Below are positions 8,042 to 41,428 of a DNA stretch of 41,428 bases, piece by piece. This DNA is from Candidatus Zambryskibacteria bacterium RIFCSPHIGHO2_01_FULL_43_25 (lineage in GTDB: Bacteria > Patescibacteriota > Minisyncoccia > Phycocordibacterales > Zambryskibacteraceae). The notes below the pieces were generated by a model. That model was given only the letters and a program-made list of their open reading frames with translations. It was not told where the DNA came from and made no database searches. The stretch lies in assembly GCA_001823695.1 (NCBI GenBank), contig MHVD01000004.1, positions 1 through 41,428 on the forward strand, written 5' to 3'. Made by a program: the position numbers and the translations under genes. Position 1 is the first letter of the stretch, and every line of letters starts with the position of its first letter.

Positions 8042-8113
8042 GGCCACGTAGCCAAGTAGTAAGGCAGGAGTCTGCAAAACTCCTATACGCGGGTGCGATT
8101 CCCGCCGTGGCCT
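8042..8113 (+). tRNA. tRNA-Cys (anticodon GCA)
   Basis: Cloverleaf: acceptor GGCCACG/CGTGGCC, 3-bp D-stem, anticodon loop CTGCAAA, T-arm GCGGGTGCGATTCCCGC, discriminator T. CCA is not encoded. Confidence 0.85.
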
Positions 8114-8246
8114 CCCTAAAACATTTATGGAGTAAATGTTCGGGCGAACATTTGCGAAGCAAAGTGTTTTAGCCAGGCCTAGGAGCAAACAAGCTGCTTT
8201 GTTTGCATCGGGAATTGCAGATTTGTTAAATTTGCCGTTAGAAGCC

Positions 8247-8328
8247 GGGCCAGTGGCGGAATGGTATACGCGCAACACTTAAAATGTTGTCCGCTATGCG
8301 GATGAGGGTCCGACTCCCTCCTGGCCCA
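8247..8328 (+). tRNA. tRNA-Leu (anticodon TAA), class II with long variable arm
   Basis: Acceptor GGGCCAG/CTGGCCC, anticodon stem-loop CAACA-CTTAAAA-TGTTG, long variable arm, T-arm GAGGGTCCGACTCCCTC. Confidence 0.8.
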
Positions 8329-8358
8329 CTTAGTACAAGATTATAATTTTGGTCAACC

Positions 8359-8400
8359 AATAAACATACTAACAAACTTGAGTTTGTTAGTATGTTTATT
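8359..8400 (+). promoter_or_regulatory. 42-bp perfect palindrome (20+TG+20) overlapping the promoter of the ArsR-like gene; candidate operator or terminal inverted repeat
   Basis: AATAAACATACTAACAAACT-TG-AGTTTGTTAGTATGTTTATT; the arms are exact reverse complements. It ends 5-14 nt before the gene's ATG codons. Confidence 0.7.
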
Positions 8401-8414
8401 GTAGGATGTTAAAT

Positions 8415-8699
8415 ATGACAAAAGTTAAAACCCCAAAGCAAATGGAACGCCACCTTAAGGGTATAGCCAACCATTACAGAATTGAAATATTACTCATAAT
8501 CTCAAGAAAAAAATCTATGACTTTGGAGGAAATCGTTGATGAAATTAAAGCTAATGAAAAAACACTGGGCGCGCACACGAGAAGTCTCCACCATGCAGGG
8601 CTTATTAACAAAAAATACCAAGGAAGATTCGTAAATCACTCCCTCTCTCCATATGGCAAGAAATTTGTTAATTTCTTGAAATCATTTCAACATGGATAA
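8415..8699 (+). CDS. ArsR/SmtB-family winged-helix transcriptional regulator (small, orphan)
   Basis: ANHYRIEILLIIS...LEEIVDEI...HTRSLHHAGLI matches the ArsR HTH pattern (compare LADPTRLRILELL...SHHLKVLREAGLV). The start could also be the ATG at 8406. Confidence 0.75.
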   Translation: MTKVKTPKQMERHLKGIANHYRIEILLIISRKKSMTLEEIVDEIKANEKTLGAHTRSLHHAGLINKKYQGRFVNHSLSPYGKKFVNFLKSFQHG

Positions 8700-8738
8700 C
8701 AACATACTCACAAACTCAAGTTTGTTAGTGTGATGTAA
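8700..8738 (+). repeat. second, imperfect copy of the ArsR-flanking palindrome, in inverted orientation (centre CA)
   Basis: ACATACTCACAAACT-CA-AGTTTGTTAGTGTGATGT begins 1 nt after the stop codon. It approximates the reverse complement of the upstream copy with 3 mismatches. Confidence 0.65.
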
Positions 8739-8872
8739 TTATGTTGTAGTGGATCGTGTCTTGTCGTCACAAATAAATTTGCTGACGTAAATTTTTCGCG
8801 ACCCTGGCTCGTGGTTTTTGCCTTTACTTCGCAAAACAAAAACATTGCTGTGCCTCGGACAAAAGCACAAAA

Positions 8873-8903
8873 TCCTGCGCAAGCAGGATTATTGTGTCTT
8901 TTG
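8873..8903 (-). terminator. hairpin terminator (AATCCTGC-GCAA-GCAGGATT plus T-rich tail) downstream of tRNA-Lys; may also terminate the ArsR gene on the + strand
   Basis: Perfect 8-bp stem with a GCAA loop, followed by TTGTGTCTTTTGTCC. Confidence 0.5.
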
Positions 8904-8977
8904 TCCGCCCAGTAGGATTTGAACCTACGACCGTTCGCTTAAGAGGCGACTGCTCTACCGGCCTGAGCTATGGGCGG
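8904..8977 (-). tRNA. tRNA-Lys (anticodon CTT)
   Basis: The reverse complement folds: acceptor CCGCCCA/TGGGCGG, D-arm GCTC-AGGCCGGTA-GAGC, anticodon loop CTCTTAA, T-arm GTAGGTTCAAATCCTAC, discriminator A. There is one G.A mismatch at the base of the anticodon stem. Confidence 0.7.
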
Positions 8978-9857: not shown

Positions 9858-9985
9858 AGACAGAACTTAGCGGTTGAGAACCAACCAAGGCGTAAGCGGC
9901 GCGAAGCGCCGCTCATACTGTTTCGCCTGATTTTCCAAAATTGTTAATAGAAACACAAATATAAGTTAGGATATTAAAACCGCTT

Positions 9986-10019
9986 GGTATAATAACTTAC
10001 GATCGTAAGTTATTATACC
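9986..10019 (+). repeat. 34-bp perfect palindrome GGTATAATAACTTACGA|TCGTAAGTTATTATACC (PalA family) upstream of the SPFH gene promoter
   Basis: The arms are exact reverse complements. It shares the termini GGTATWATA...TATWATACC with the palindrome at 21512. Confidence 0.7.
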
Positions 10020-10081
10020 ATTTTAAAATAGCGAAAAGTTTCAGAGAGGTTTTTAGGATTTTTATGAGTTGAGATTTTTTG

Positions 10082-21511: not shown

Positions 21512-21547
21512 GGTATTATAAAAACGCTATAGCGTTTTTATAATACC
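21512..21547 (+). repeat. 36-bp perfect palindrome GGTATTATAAAAACGC-TATA-GCGTTTTTATAATACC (PalA family) in the divergent intergenic region
   Basis: Exact reverse-complement arms with a TATA centre flanked by GC. The termini match the palindrome at 9986. Confidence 0.7.
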
Positions 21548-22281: not shown

Positions 22282-22323
22282 ACCATCACATTTTTTCTGC
22301 TATAGCAGAAAAAATGTGATGGT
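22282..22323 (+). repeat. 42-bp perfect hairpin/palindrome ACCATCACATTTTTTCTGC-TATA-GCAGAAAAAATGTGATGGT (PalB family)
   Basis: 19-bp exact stem with a TATA loop. The terminal 10 nt and the GC-TATA-GC centre are identical to the element at 29834. Confidence 0.75.
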
Positions 22324-29822: not shown

Positions 29823-29833
29823 TTACATTTTTC

Positions 29834-29875
29834 ACCATCACATAAAATCCGCTATAGCGGATTTTATGTGATGGT
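29834..29875 (+). repeat. 42-bp perfect hairpin/palindrome ACCATCACATAAAATCCGC-TATA-GCGGATTTTATGTGATGGT (PalB family copy 2)
   Basis: 19-bp exact stem. Same termini and centre as 22282, with compensatory differences inside the arms. Confidence 0.75.
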
Positions 29876-30333
29876 AGATTGGCAAGATCCAAAAAAGATC
29901 CAAAATGAAGAAGTTCTTCCCCTTCACGAGAAGAGACTGCAAACACGGGCAGAAGAGTGCCGCCGCGTTCGCAAGAACGTGGCGGGTTTTTATTTTGCCT
30001 TTAATTTCTTAACATCAGCAGTATCCCAACTTATCAGCGACCGCATATAAGTTGGAATACTTTGTTTAGTTAGAAGTAGTAGTGGTGAGTAGTGGATTGT
30101 CTGTTGTTAGTTTTTTGTGCGTTAGGAATTTTCAAATTTCTGTATTCCTTCTTGATTCTTTATTCCCCGCCTGCCAGCGCCTGTTGTTGATAAAATTGTT
30201 ATATTCGGATAAAGTGGTAACTACGAATTCTTGCAAAAATCCAGCAACGGGCTTATGGCGGGCAGGCTAATTTATTATTCTTATCTTCATGCTATTCTTT
30301 ATTCGTTATTCCTAATTCTTTATTCTTTTTACC

Positions 30334-38663: not shown

Positions 38664-39488
38664 CTACGGAGAGAAGTTGGGAAGTGCGAATTTCAACCCA
38701 ACTTCAATCTTCCTCAACCTCCGGAAGAATAAAACAACACCGTTTTGCGGATTGACCGGCCGGCCGGCCTCGTCATCATCTTCGCACAAAAGGAGACCGG
38801 TAGCAGTCCCTGCCACTAAAGCTCCAGCAACCCACAACCACGGGAATGGCGCGCCTACCTTCACTGTATCCGTCTTCTCCACTAGTACCGGCACGAGAAT
38901 CGTGTTCGGTTTTGGTGGCGGAAGTGTTGGCCAGAAGCGCACGACCGTGGGACGATCAAGCGATACTGACATCGTGTCGGTGACTGCCCGGCCCGAAACC
39001 AGAATCAGTTTCGAGTACCAGACGTTGATCGAATCGGGTGGCACAACTACCGGCGCCTCCTTAACCTCTGCTGACCAGCTCTTGATTGGGTTGCCACACA
39101 GGAGCGACATATAGTTTCCCAAACAAAGCTCGCCTGGTTCAGCATCTCTCGTTACTTCAATGATTTCCCCTTCTGCCGAAAGACCAGCGAGAGTCATCCG
39201 CTTCGGACAGGCGCGGACAGGAGTGTTGAATATGAAATGCCCGAAACTGACGTTGTCTGAACCAATGCTACCAGCCAACTCCGGACGATACTTGATGACG
39301 GTATTGCGGAGAATTCCACAATCCGCGTAGATCTTGGTCCTGTCGCAGACTGTAATCCAGCCTGCCATCTCGCTCGCCAGCCTTGCCGGATCTGTGAAAG
39401 CGCCCTGCCGCCTCTGCACTCTCTGCGCTTCTGTGCTTCTTGGCATGAGCGCCAAAACCAGCACGACGAAGAGCAATGTGGCTCTCAT
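38664..39488 (-). CDS. hypothetical secreted protein (signal peptide, C-terminal hydrophobic anchor), GC-rich gene
   Basis: 274 aa. N-terminal MRATLLFVVLVLALMPRSTEAQ. GGAGGA RBS. About 55% GC versus about 40% in the flanks. No recognised domain. Confidence 0.55.
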   Translation of the reverse strand: MRATLLFVVLVLALMPRSTEAQRVQRRQGAFTDPARLASEMAGWITVCDRTKIYADCGILRNTVIKYRPELAGSIGSDNVSFGHFIFNTPVRACPKRMTLAGLSAEGEIIEVTRDAEPGELCLGNYMSLLCGNPIKSWSAEVKEAPVVVPPDSINVWYSKLILVSGRAVTDTMSVSLDRPTVVRFWPTLPPPKPNTILVPVLVEKTDTVKVGAPFPWLWVAGALVAGTATGLLLCEDDDEAGRPVNPQNGVVLFFRRLRKIEVGLKFALPNFSP

Positions 39489-39576
39489 TTCTTCCTCCTT
39501 GGTTTCGCTTGAGTCTGGAACGTTTCCGTGGTGACAGTACCACGAGTATTTAAAGAAGTAAAGCTTATTTTTATTT

Positions 39577-39602
39577 TCATATTCTTAAGAATATGAGAAT
39601 AA
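39577..39602 (+). promoter_or_regulatory. 26-bp near-perfect palindrome TTTTCATATTCTTAAGAATATGAGAA upstream of the GC-rich secreted-protein gene; candidate operator
   Basis: The central 18 bp, CATATTCTTAAGAATATG, are perfectly palindromic. It lies about 90 bp upstream of the start codon at 39488. Confidence 0.4.
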
Positions 39603-39627: not shown

Positions 39628-39704
39628 TGGTGCGCGATAGAGGATTCGAACCTCTGGCCTCGTCTACGTCAAAGACGCGCTCTAACCAACTGAGCTAATC
39701 GCGC
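39628..39704 (-). tRNA. tRNA-Val (anticodon GAC), CCA encoded
   Basis: The reverse complement folds: acceptor GCGCGAT/ATCGCGC, anticodon stem-loop CGTCT-TTGACGT-AGACG, T-arm AGAGGTTCGAATCCTCT, ACCA 3' end. Confidence 0.85.
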
Positions 39705-40382: not shown

Positions 40383-40420
40383 AATCTATTCTATAGTTCT
40401 CAAGAACATTAGAATAGATT
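40383..40420 (+). repeat. 38-bp near-perfect palindrome overlapping the 3' end of the second ArsR-like gene (centre CA)
   Basis: AATCTATTCTA-TAGTTCT-CA-AGAACAT-TAGAATAGATT. It encodes the C-terminal residues FLRTIE and the stop codon, and shares the core TAGTTCTYRAGAAC with the palindrome at 40693. Confidence 0.6.
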
Positions 40421-40655
40421 TGCCAAGCGAAGAAAGTTTATGCCTAACAGCACTCCCATCATTACGTTTTAAAATAAGACCCGAATTTGCGAGTCGTGAT
40501 ACGTGCTGGGAAATTGTCTTAAAATTCACTTTTAAAATATCTGATATCTCAAATATTGATAATTCCGGTTTATTACTCAAAAGCTCAAGTATCTGGATCC
40601 GGCGATGGTTTGCAAAACCTTTAACTATTTTTTCTAATTCTCTAACCTTTTTCAT
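40386..40655 (-). CDS. ArsR/SmtB-family winged-helix transcriptional regulator, paralog of the gene at 8415
   Basis: VKGFANHRRIQILELLS...ISQHVSRLANSGLI is homologous to LKGIANHYRIEILLIIS...HTRSLHHAGLI of the first copy. Confidence 0.75.
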   Translation of the reverse strand: MKKVRELEKIVKGFANHRRIQILELLSNKPELSIFEISDILKVNFKTISQHVSRLANSGLILKRNDGSAVRHKLSSLGKSILMFLRTIE

Positions 40656-40692
40656 ATATCTATTTTCATATATCTATTTCATTCTAACACTA

Positions 40693-40738
40693 CACATCCC
40701 TATTCCATAGTTCTTGAGAACTATGGAATAGGGATGTG
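40693..40738 (+). promoter_or_regulatory. 46-bp perfect palindrome (22+TG+22) upstream of the second ArsR-like gene; candidate operator or terminal inverted repeat
   Basis: CACATCCCTATTCCATAGTTCT-TG-AGAACTATGGAATAGGGATGTG. It lies about 40 bp upstream of the start codon at 40655. Confidence 0.7.
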
Positions 40739-40863
40739 GGGATGAGAAATTTTAGCGGAACAATAAAGAACAACAAAAATGACGAAAATGATGTGGTAAA
40801 AAGAAGTTGGAGTATGTTGAGCTGAGACCAGCTGTAACCCCATATTATTAGCTAAAAACAGCA

Positions 40864-40895
40864 AAAACGTTCCGCCAGCTGGCGGAACGTTTTTG
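40864..40895. terminator. intrinsic terminator, CCGCC-hairpin family copy 4 (AAAAACGTTCCGCC-AGCT-GGCGGAACGTTTTT), perfect
   Basis: Perfect 10-bp stem with A-run and T-run flanks. It is flanked by ATTATTAGCTA direct repeats at about 40845 and 40958. Confidence 0.7.
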
Positions 40896-40981: not shown

Positions 40982-41428
40982 ATGAATAAAAAGTTGGTTA
41001 TGGTAGTTGTCGGCGTATTGATAATTGCCGGCGGTATTGTAGTTTTTAATAATTACGGTTCAAGTTCTGACCAGACAGCCGGGGCTGGAGGAGCATTTGA
41101 CGCACTTGGTTATAACCGCACCGCGCGAATTTTCAATGGCACCGGTGCGACTTGGTGTGAATCAAAGGGTTTGCCGTCAGACTGCGTTGGTATTTATTCT
41201 CCTGACAAACTCATAATGAAATGGACAGAGGACTGGGATAGGGGCAATGACGAGAACTGGGCTAATCCTCCTTATGACAGCGCTTGGATTGATAATGAAT
41301 GGAATGGAAAAAAGGATGGTTCCGGCTCTGTTTGGCATTACAAAATAAAGTGGGTTGGTCCTTGTGGCGCAGATTATACCCCGCTTCCGGATGGCGGATA
41401 CTGCATTTGGGGACAGTTTGAGACAATT
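40982..41428 (+). CDS. hypothetical membrane-anchored secreted protein, 5' partial (runs off the window end)
   Basis: The open frame from ATG 40982 has no stop before the window end. N-terminal TM helix LVMVVVGVLIIAGGIVV. W, D and N-rich ectodomain. Confidence 0.45.
   Translation, partial: MNKKLVMVVVGVLIIAGGIVVFNNYGSSSDQTAGAGGAFDALGYNRTARIFNGTGATWCESKGLPSDCVGIYSPDKLIMKWTEDWDRGNDENWANPPYDSAWIDNEWNGKKDGSGSVWHYKIKWVGPCGADYTPLPDGGYCIWGQFETI

Follow-up and report, generated by a model that had tools for sequence, protein, structure and literature searches.

A small ArsR-fold regulator gene of Candidatus Zambryskibacteria bracketed by two predicted operators, one of them written into its last codons

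We analyzed a 41,428-nucleotide stretch of DNA (the window) from Candidatus Zambryskibacteria bacterium RIFCSPHIGHO2_01_FULL_43_25 (assembly GCA_001823695.1, contig MHVD01000004.1, positions 1 to 41,428), in which a small gene for a putative transcriptional regulator lies between two long palindromes. Scores for the palindromes are from a position weight matrix (PWM) that we built from the upstream sites of the regulator's family, counting hits above 14 bits. The features of the locus are:

40386..40655, minus strand: gene for an ArsR/SmtB-fold winged-helix regulator of 89 amino acids, from the list of open reading frames (ORFs); stop codon at 40386-40388
40693..40738: predicted upstream operator, a 22+2+22 palindrome with its core at 40700-40731, CTATTCCATAGTTCT TG AGAACTATGGAATAG (PWM score 34.4 bits)
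40383..40420: predicted distal operator, an 18+2+18 near-palindrome in the last ~10 codons and the stop codon, with its core at 40386-40417 (PWM score 40.6 bits)
40681..40689, minus strand: candidate extended -10 promoter TGTTAGAAT, downstream of the upstream operator and ahead of the ATG, read from the sequence and from parallels in the family

The arms of the upstream repeat (40693-40714 and 40717-40738) are 22 nt each and 100% complementary, and they flank a TG centre. A first-pass annotation made from the sequence had called this a 46-bp perfect palindrome; the arms are indeed fully complementary, but the TG centre is not self-complementary, so that the symmetry holds at 44 of 46 positions. 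The arms of the distal repeat (40383-40400 and 40403-40420) are 18 nt each, with two mismatches and a CA centre, and 35 of its 38 nt fall within the ORF. Read on the gene strand, the distal repeat is (AA)A TCT ATT CTA ATG TTC TTG AGA ACT ATA GAA TAG ATT, which translates as K-S-I-L-M-F-L-R-T-I-E-stop, so it takes in about ten codons and the stop codon rather than the last six residues reported at first. As inverted copies, the upstream and distal sites of the regulator are 88% identical over 32 nt. The inversion of the centre between the two sites had also been seen as part of the design, but TG and CA are the same base-pair step read from opposite strands, and the difference carries no information: of the loci with TG at the downstream centre, 36 have CA upstream and 24 have TG, and a Leu TTR codon dictates what stands at the downstream centre. 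Because the window holds 43 palindrome records whose arms reach 13 nt or more (about 17 distinct palindromes) and shuffled windows give only 0-5, a chance origin of the palindromes is excluded.

The 89-residue product matches the Pfam family HTH_5 (ArsR) with 37.4 bits, against a cut-off of 22. Its AlphaFold2 monomer model (predicted local distance difference test, pLDDT, 95.3) has the topology a1-a2-a3-a4-b1-b2-a5 of the ArsR/SmtB fold, with helices at residues 2-14, 17-28, 34-41 and 45-57, strands at 61-66 and 69-74, and helix a5 at 76-88. The best Foldseek matches of the model are 3cuo (an uncharacterised Escherichia coli regulator), CadC, HlyU and SmtB, followed lower down by CzrA, PagR and NolR; template modelling (TM) scores against CadC, CzrA, HlyU and NolR are 0.8-0.89. 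HlyU, CadC, CzrA, SmtB, NolR and PagR are also among the solved structures found by searching the PDB with a profile made from 35 family members. We considered membership among the ArsR/SmtB metalloregulators and rejected it: the NCBIfam model for these proteins (NF033788, cut-off 55) gives 50.4 bits for the regulator and 37.2 bits for its 94-residue paralog described below, and the two sequences have no CxC motif in a3, no His/Asp/Glu metal cluster in a5, and no Cys at all. By fold and sequence the regulator is a minimal ArsR-fold protein of the non-metal-sensing kind, with no obvious sensor site, and the dyad symmetry of the palindromes is consistent with a dimeric regulator.

In Candidatus Zambryskibacteria, an identical protein carries the annotation hypothetical. 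We found 297 homologs of the regulator, of which those listed have ~60-78% identity and are nearly all about 89 residues long. The named homologs among the matches listed come from many lineages of the Candidate Phyla Radiation (CPR), and the family is essentially restricted to the CPR and highly conserved there. From this family we sampled 80 loci from GTDB genomes and 80 from metagenomes, comprising 143 unique genes; near-duplicate loci were collapsed by exact sequence or by protein identity thresholds, and the statistics are given without phylogenetic correction. An upstream site is present in 139 of the 143 unique loci, nearly all of them in CPR/Patescibacteria, and a site within the ORF, in a fixed register in the last codons, in 137 of the 143. 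The motif common to these sites is ATTCY-N4-TTCT-N2-AGAA-N4-RGAAT, a 15-2-15 core. The conserved C-terminal peptide of the family, S-I-L-K/M-F-L-R-T-L-E-stop, is simply this motif translated (TCT ATT CTN AAR/ATG TTC TTR AGA ACA TTR GAA TAG). The first-pass annotation had suggested a search for further members, and homologs with the same bracketing design do occur across the CPR.

Codon choice at the end of the gene follows the motif. We counted positions back from the stop codon and compared codon usage with that in the remaining codons of the same genes, and stop codon usage with that in long ORFs of the same loci. Phe(-6) is encoded by TTC in 72 of 72 genes (background 37%) and Arg(-4) by AGA in 71 of 71 (26%). 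Leucine codons are CTN at position -8 (72/72; background 59%) and TTR at position -5 (69/70; background 41%). Ile(-9) is ATT in 63 of 64 genes (45%), Glu(-1) is GAA in 68 of 69 (58%), and TAG is the stop codon in 43 of 72 (25%). With synonymous codons fixed to the motif in this way, the match inside the ORF is not accidental, as had been argued from the window alone. We conclude from this comparison that the predicted in-ORF operator is under selection at the DNA level, which partly dictates the C-terminus of the protein.

The two sites of a locus also change together. Upstream and in-ORF sites covary within loci at the N4 and outer positions, including bases past the stop codon, with z values of 5-9 (0 of 2000 permutations reach the observed value). 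They covary at the centre step as well, where TA goes with TA (odds ratio 9.5, p = 1.5e-7). In five genes, a GC centre in the in-ORF site turns the otherwise invariant Leu85 into Cys (giving 'FCR'), and four of these five also have a GC centre upstream (p = 8e-5). The regulator gene in the window has the codons ACT-ATA for Thr87-Ile88, which are rare in the family (5/72 and 2/72) and match the CTAT of its own upstream site. In locus L005, which represents a genome with two paralogs, one copy has the GC centre together with FCR and the other has TA. A further candidate, replacement of the C-terminal Glu by Ala or Thr following an AGCAT block upstream, was seen in 2 of 12 loci (p = 0.06) and we regard it as anecdotal.

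In regulator-family loci, the sequence TGnTATAAT lies between the upstream palindrome and the ATG, mostly 6-7 nt ahead of the ATG, which implies leaderless mRNAs. The centre of the upstream palindrome is preferentially about 21 or 30-31 nt ahead of the -10 hexamer, and therefore near -33 or -43, overlapping the -35/spacer region. The candidate -10 element of the window's regulator gene (40681-40689) is not listed by a generic sigma-70 scan. Among the CPR loci L001-L160 (for example L045, L076, L080 and L037) we noticed extended -10 elements without a clear -35, which suggests that leaderless mRNAs are common for such genes. The leader and start-codon region of the window's regulator gene also contains an exact 14-nt tandem duplication at 40649-40676 (TTTTCATATATCTA twice). 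This duplication creates a 5-codon upstream ORF on the gene strand (MKIDI-stop), whose TGA overlaps the real ATG (ATGA), and it increases the spacing between the -10 and the ATG, which is 25 nt instead of 11.

Sites with the regulator's motif are not confined to the regulator gene. A third one in the window is:

39572..39601: third site of the regulator motif (TATTTTCATATTCTTAAGAATATGAGAATA), a probable regulon operator (PWM score 34.3 bits)

It lies 27 nt past a tRNA-Val gene (minus strand) and ~85-115 nt upstream of an ORF at 38664..39488 (minus strand), which encodes 274 amino acids with a hydrophobic, signal-peptide-like N-terminus, has a strong AAGGAGG ribosome-binding site, and has no match in Pfam. 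A motif scan for sites upstream of other genes had been proposed earlier, and besides this site it yields a set of orphans: in 461 kb of loci the PWM has 195 hits (none in shuffled sequence), of which 143 are at regulator genes and ~35 are away from them, upstream of diverse ORFs. By Pfam, the ORFs at orphan sites include a pyrimidine-dimer glycosylase (Pyr_excise), Fpg, three NUDIX proteins, an SNase-like nuclease, Sua5, a cold-shock protein, TauE and glycosyltransferases. In other loci, the gene directly downstream of the regulator is presumably RecJ, RecG, RadC, UDG or DHFR, names that we took from N-terminal sequences and that are not checked against Pfam. These repair and nucleotide genes near predicted operators may hint at targets in DNA repair or nucleotide sanitation. 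Those beside orphan sites are at L016:3894-4331, L045:4076-4699, L076:618-1151, L078:3628-4926, L128:221-745 and L136:1569-2405. According to the first-pass annotation, palindromes at many unrelated intergenic positions would be generic repetitive extragenic palindromic (REP)-like repeats. Sites do exist elsewhere, as at 39572-39601, but they are few and lie upstream of genes. With three sites in the 41-kb window, two of them at the regulator gene, and with the hits away from regulator genes in the 461 kb lying upstream of ORFs, we rejected a REP-like repeat, a bacterial interspersed mosaic element (BIME) and a miniature inverted-repeat transposable element (MITE), and we interpret the palindromes as operators because of their low copy number and their position upstream of genes.

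The window contains a second locus of the same kind, for which the features are:

8415..8699, plus strand: paralogous ArsR-like gene of 94 amino acids, 39% identical to the regulator over 89 amino acids (E = 1e-21), Pfam HTH_5 match of 27.3 bits (cut-off 22)
8358..8401: predicted upstream operator of the paralog, a 21+2+21 perfect palindrome, CAATAAACATACTAACAAACT TG AGTTTGTTAGTATGTTTATTG
8696..8739: predicted distal operator of the paralog, with a 14+2+14 core at 8703-8732 (two mismatches, centre CA)

The Pfam matches and the sequence identity confirm that the two genes are ArsR-like paralogs. The candidate -10 element of the 8.4-kb gene is TAGGAT at 8402-8407, 7 nt ahead of the ATG at 8415. 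The core of its distal site starts just after the stop codon (8697-8699) and is non-coding, so the description of the distal copy as embedded in coding sequence is true for the 40.4-kb gene but not for this one. The family of the paralog is larger still, with 1852 homologs, of which the 120 listed are 67-78% identical except for one identical sequence. We fetched eight of these loci, making nine unique loci with the window, and judged sites by eye and by the pairing of their arms. Both an upstream and a distal site are present in all nine, with the motif CAT(C/A)CTTAyAAACT-NN-AGwwTrTAAGGATG, and in seven of the nine the distal site begins 0-4 nt past the stop codon. Because the distal sites of the paralog family are non-coding and yet present, the two-operator bracket is kept in both families whether the distal site is coding or not. 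The view that both loci of the window follow one design, with a strong palindrome 5' and a weaker one 3' of the gene, is thus borne out in 137-139 of 143 loci in the regulator family and 9 of 9 in the paralog family.

The two paralogs appear to have separate site specificities, since the PWM of the regulator family gives the paralog's two sites -2.6 and -7.1 bits, compared with 34-41 bits for its own. Within the window, the half-sites of the regulator and of the paralog are each confined to their own locus. The recognition helices differ too, being FKTISQHVSRL in the regulator and EKTLGAHTRSL in the paralog; at the level of families they are NFKTxSEHxRRL and NEKT(L/I)GEHTRRL. The proposal that recognition sequences have diverged along with the proteins is upheld by the separation of the sites by the PWM and by the covariation within loci of the regulator family. 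At each of three levels, sequence comparison in this way supports co-evolution of palindrome and protein: from family to family, from paralog to paralog within a genome (for example L005), and from ortholog to ortholog.

We read the palindromes as probable operators of the protein encoded between them, a view that we hold with moderate confidence, in which the upstream site would serve autoregulation and the distal site a roadblock or a loop. The regulator would bind the upstream operator over the -35/spacer region of the extended -10 promoter and shut off its own transcription. Bound to the operator at the 3' boundary of the gene (codons 79-89 and the stop codon; in the paralog family, from the stop codon onwards), it would most likely stop or stall RNA polymerase at the gene's end, and polymerase would meet it just before the stop codon is transcribed. 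Such a roadblock could yield transcripts that lack a stop codon and lead to tagging by trans-translation, as for LacI at its operator O3, and it could gate read-through into the downstream gene. The distal site might also cooperate with the upstream site through a loop of ~300 bp. The predicted operator inside the gene or at its 3' end occurs in 137 of 143 regulator-family loci and 7 of 9 paralog-family loci (0-4 nt past the stop codon in the latter), and in both families the distal site is tied to the stop codon of the regulator, not to the next gene.

Several points weigh against this reading. The sites, their motif, their position relative to promoters, the DNA-level selection within the ORF, the covariation within loci and the sites at other genes all come directly from comparing sequences, and it is from these that we infer binding by the regulator, the sign of regulation, and a roadblock or loop, that is, all of the function. 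HlyU, the closest solved relative in the profile search, was deposited as an activator, and the regulator may likewise activate instead of repress. Some loci have 50-70 nt between the upstream site and the -10, a distance that simple occlusion could not bridge, and preferred operator positions one helical turn apart would also fit an activator that acts from a specific face of the DNA. The distance between the two operators is periodic at 10.5-10.6 bp (R = 0.27-0.31, jitter-null P <= 0.0003, n = 94-128 once relatives were collapsed). The spacing between the upstream site and the -10 has two modes that differ by one helical turn, and the other spacings hardly vary; because the operator-promoter geometry is itself phased, the periodicity cannot be assigned to looping. 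We therefore rejected helical phasing as proof of looping, as a signal that is real and confounded by this geometry. To our knowledge, ArsR-type dimers do not generally form tetramers. Lastly, a co-directional gene follows the regulator in 65 of 78 loci, often within 1-90 nt, and the distal site could mainly serve that gene.

If so, the distal site would be an operator or promoter-operator of the next gene, which the regulator gene merely abuts, with no role in the regulator's own expression. We consider this unlikely, although apart from the frequency and closeness of co-directional neighbors it can draw on a clear TGnTATAAT that separates the distal site from the next ATG in L048, L111, L160 and L130, and in L167 and L171, and on a tRNA-Gln gene that begins 47-60 nt past the stop codon, just beyond the in-ORF operator, in several loci (five). 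The site keeps its place at the regulator's stop codon while the gap to the next gene varies from -4 to >280 nt, and in 30 of 130 loci the next ORF starts <=12 nt away, so that there is no room for a promoter. It is equally intact where no co-directional gene follows, including at both paralogs in the window, and co-directional neighbors are as common upstream (~80%; 61 of the 73 loci that have an upstream neighbor). We also considered the TAGAAT that an arm could supply as the -10 of a close next gene and rejected it, since the TTA codon that would create it is not enriched at gaps <=12 nt. We found no conserved functional partner gene downstream, as the neighbors differ by lineage; from N-terminal sequences not checked against Pfam, we take them to be RsmI (8 loci), MurC, RecJ, ThrC, an ABC-F ATPase, DHFR, UDG and others. 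Conservation of the C-terminal helix for the sake of the protein, with gene conversion keeping the upstream operator similar to a functionless resemblance inside the ORF, seems to us quite improbable. Residues 76-88 form a5, the dimer helix of ArsR/SmtB proteins, the hydrophobic pattern I-L-x-F-L is plausible for a protein, and gene conversion too would be expected to produce covariation at the outer positions and centre. It leaves unexplained the fixed synonymous codons, the split of leucine between CTN at -8 and TTR at -5, and the excess of TAG; otherwise invariant residues change with the operator, as in Leu85Cys with the GC centre; and the paralog family keeps a distal site that is non-coding.

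A different possibility is that palindrome, gene and palindrome make up a small mobile or selfish cassette, with the palindromes as terminal repeats or recombination sites. The genes around the regulator differ in almost every lineage, its two sites repeat each other in both inverted and direct orientation, a tRNA gene is within 500 nt of the regulator in ~10 of 60 loci and adjoins both paralogs in the window, and the cassette (operators plus gene) has a lower GC content than its flanks in 94 of 105 loci (mean 38% versus 43.5%; 33% versus 45% in the window). We nevertheless rate this explanation as highly doubtful: there is no transposase or recombinase, no flanking direct duplication was apparent on reading the window sequence, the GC content of the cassette tracks that of its host (r = 0.75), the same motif stands at promoter distance before ordinary genes, the upstream site is placed in a fixed geometry relative to the -10, and the similarity of the sites arm by arm lacks the attL/attR pattern expected from site-specific insertion. 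Even less can be said for the palindromes acting as an RNA hairpin (an mRNA stabilizer or terminator) or a DNA cruciform instead of as protein-binding sites, which we judge extremely unlikely. The upstream arms are perfectly complementary to 20-26 nt even though their sequence varies, much as in stem covariation, and they exceed the 12-2-12 of a typical ArsR operator; but template switching in quasi-palindromes can yield long perfect arms neutrally. At arm positions 6 and 8 of the in-ORF site, pairing is absent in ~75% of loci, while four short blocks never vary, and the mismatches have no sense-strand G-U bias (122 GT, 117 AC, 368 other). Where a promoter can be identified, the upstream palindrome in most loci precedes the -10 and hence is not transcribed. 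Neither site is followed by a U-tract or listed in the terminator scan, and the stems are AT-rich. We therefore rejected a hairpin or intrinsic terminator on the grounds of no wobble asymmetry, unconserved pairing and no terminator signature, in agreement with the first-pass annotation, which had argued that the distal copy is no terminator hairpin. A known RNA family was rejected as well, as Rfam at its gathering threshold finds only six tRNAs in the window.

Returning to the palindromes as operators of the protein between them, a more far-reaching version can be put forward only tentatively. The last ten codons of this pan-CPR regulator might be kept primarily as DNA, as a full operator for its own protein, with operator evolution driving changes in a5 (Leu85Cys with the GC centre, and Leu88Ile in the window). 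Promoter, gene and two operators would then be a portable, self-contained feedback cassette, acting by occlusion at the 5' end and at the 3' end by a roadblock with non-stop mRNA and trans-translation, which would insulate or gate the downstream gene. The same protein family would possibly be a global regulator in genomes with very few regulators.

Some other features of the window are worth recording. A perfect 34-bp palindrome that contains GC (40862-40895) has T-runs on both sides and resembles a bidirectional terminator. It sits between the upstream operator of the regulator and the next gene (ATG at 40982), with no obvious ORF or Rfam RNA leading into it. The tRNA genes near the two paralogs are at 8042-8329, 8903-8977 and 39628-39704, and similar adjacency is seen in L020, L034, L043, L056 and L062. 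There are also four long intergenic palindromes (36-48 bp), perfect or nearly so and unrelated to those described above, at 9985-10020, 21512-21547, 22282-22323 and 29831-29878. The one at 9985-10020 bears TGGTATAAT on both strands; the other three share the centre GCTATAGC, and those at 22282-22323 and 29831-29878 also share the outer arms CACCATCACAT. These four could belong to another regulator as its operators, or be elements of bidirectional promoters.

The ultra-small CPR/Patescibacteria can hardly be cultivated and have few regulator genes. What this analysis adds for them is two pan-CPR regulator families with predicted operators, a promoter architecture (extended -10, largely leaderless), and first candidate members of a regulon. 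It also provides a deep and replicated natural case of apparent dual coding, in which the site of a transcription factor would constrain the gene for that factor at synonymous and even at non-synonymous positions. We found no paper on the regulator family or its motif in a literature search.

Among known systems, the non-metal ArsR/SmtB regulators (HlyU, NolR, PagR and autorepressors of the SdpR type) share with the regulator its fold, size, HTH_5 domain and lack of a metal motif, as well as a dyad-symmetric site that overlaps the regulator's own promoter. The operator here is longer (15-2-15, with four TTCT/AGAA-like blocks) and has a second copy at the 3' end of the gene, and the family is essentially confined to the CPR and highly conserved within it. 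Unlike HlyU, BigR and SqrR, the regulator has no Cys, so the thiol switch of those proteins is impossible here. Paired operators around a promoter, one of them inside coding sequence, are also found in the gal operon, where OE and OI (the GalR repressosome) flank the promoter and repression tolerates variable operator-promoter distances. The internal operator of gal, however, is in the first structural gene and not in the regulator's own, and gal looping needs HU, whereas looping here is suggested only by a phasing that has another explanation.

The closest parallels to the distal site are of the roadblock type. LacI bound at O3, at the end of lacI, roadblocks RNA polymerase and causes a truncated transcript and SsrA tagging, and O3 also loops to O1 (PMC3711431). 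Although the protein families are unrelated, both systems place an auxiliary operator where the gene for the regulator ends. The predicted distal operator here differs in being a near-full-strength copy of the main operator and in being kept across hundreds of lineages, where it constrains ~10 codons. The restriction-modification regulator C.Kpn2I, another small helix-turn-helix protein with a site inside its own ORF, has an operator within its coding region that acts as a roadblock to elongation, by a mechanism that its authors predict to be widespread (PMC6237814). It belongs to a different fold family, and in our loci two sites bracket the gene, the one within the ORF lying at its very 3' end. 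There is direct evidence that trans-translation rescues blocked RNA polymerase-ribosome complexes (PMC13584721). Operators in coding regions, and autoregulation by a roadblock in a gene or at its end, are thus already known from LacI-O3 and C.Kpn2I. New are two regulator families, both CPR-wide, in which a copy of a predicted operator stands on either side of the gene or at its very end; in the regulator family, a full operator within the last ten codons that must have been kept for a very long time; and the measurable consequences that this putative operator has for codon choice and protein sequence. Autoregulation at the 3' end of a gene or within it, of the kind described for LacI-O3 and C.Kpn2I, may be in widespread use.

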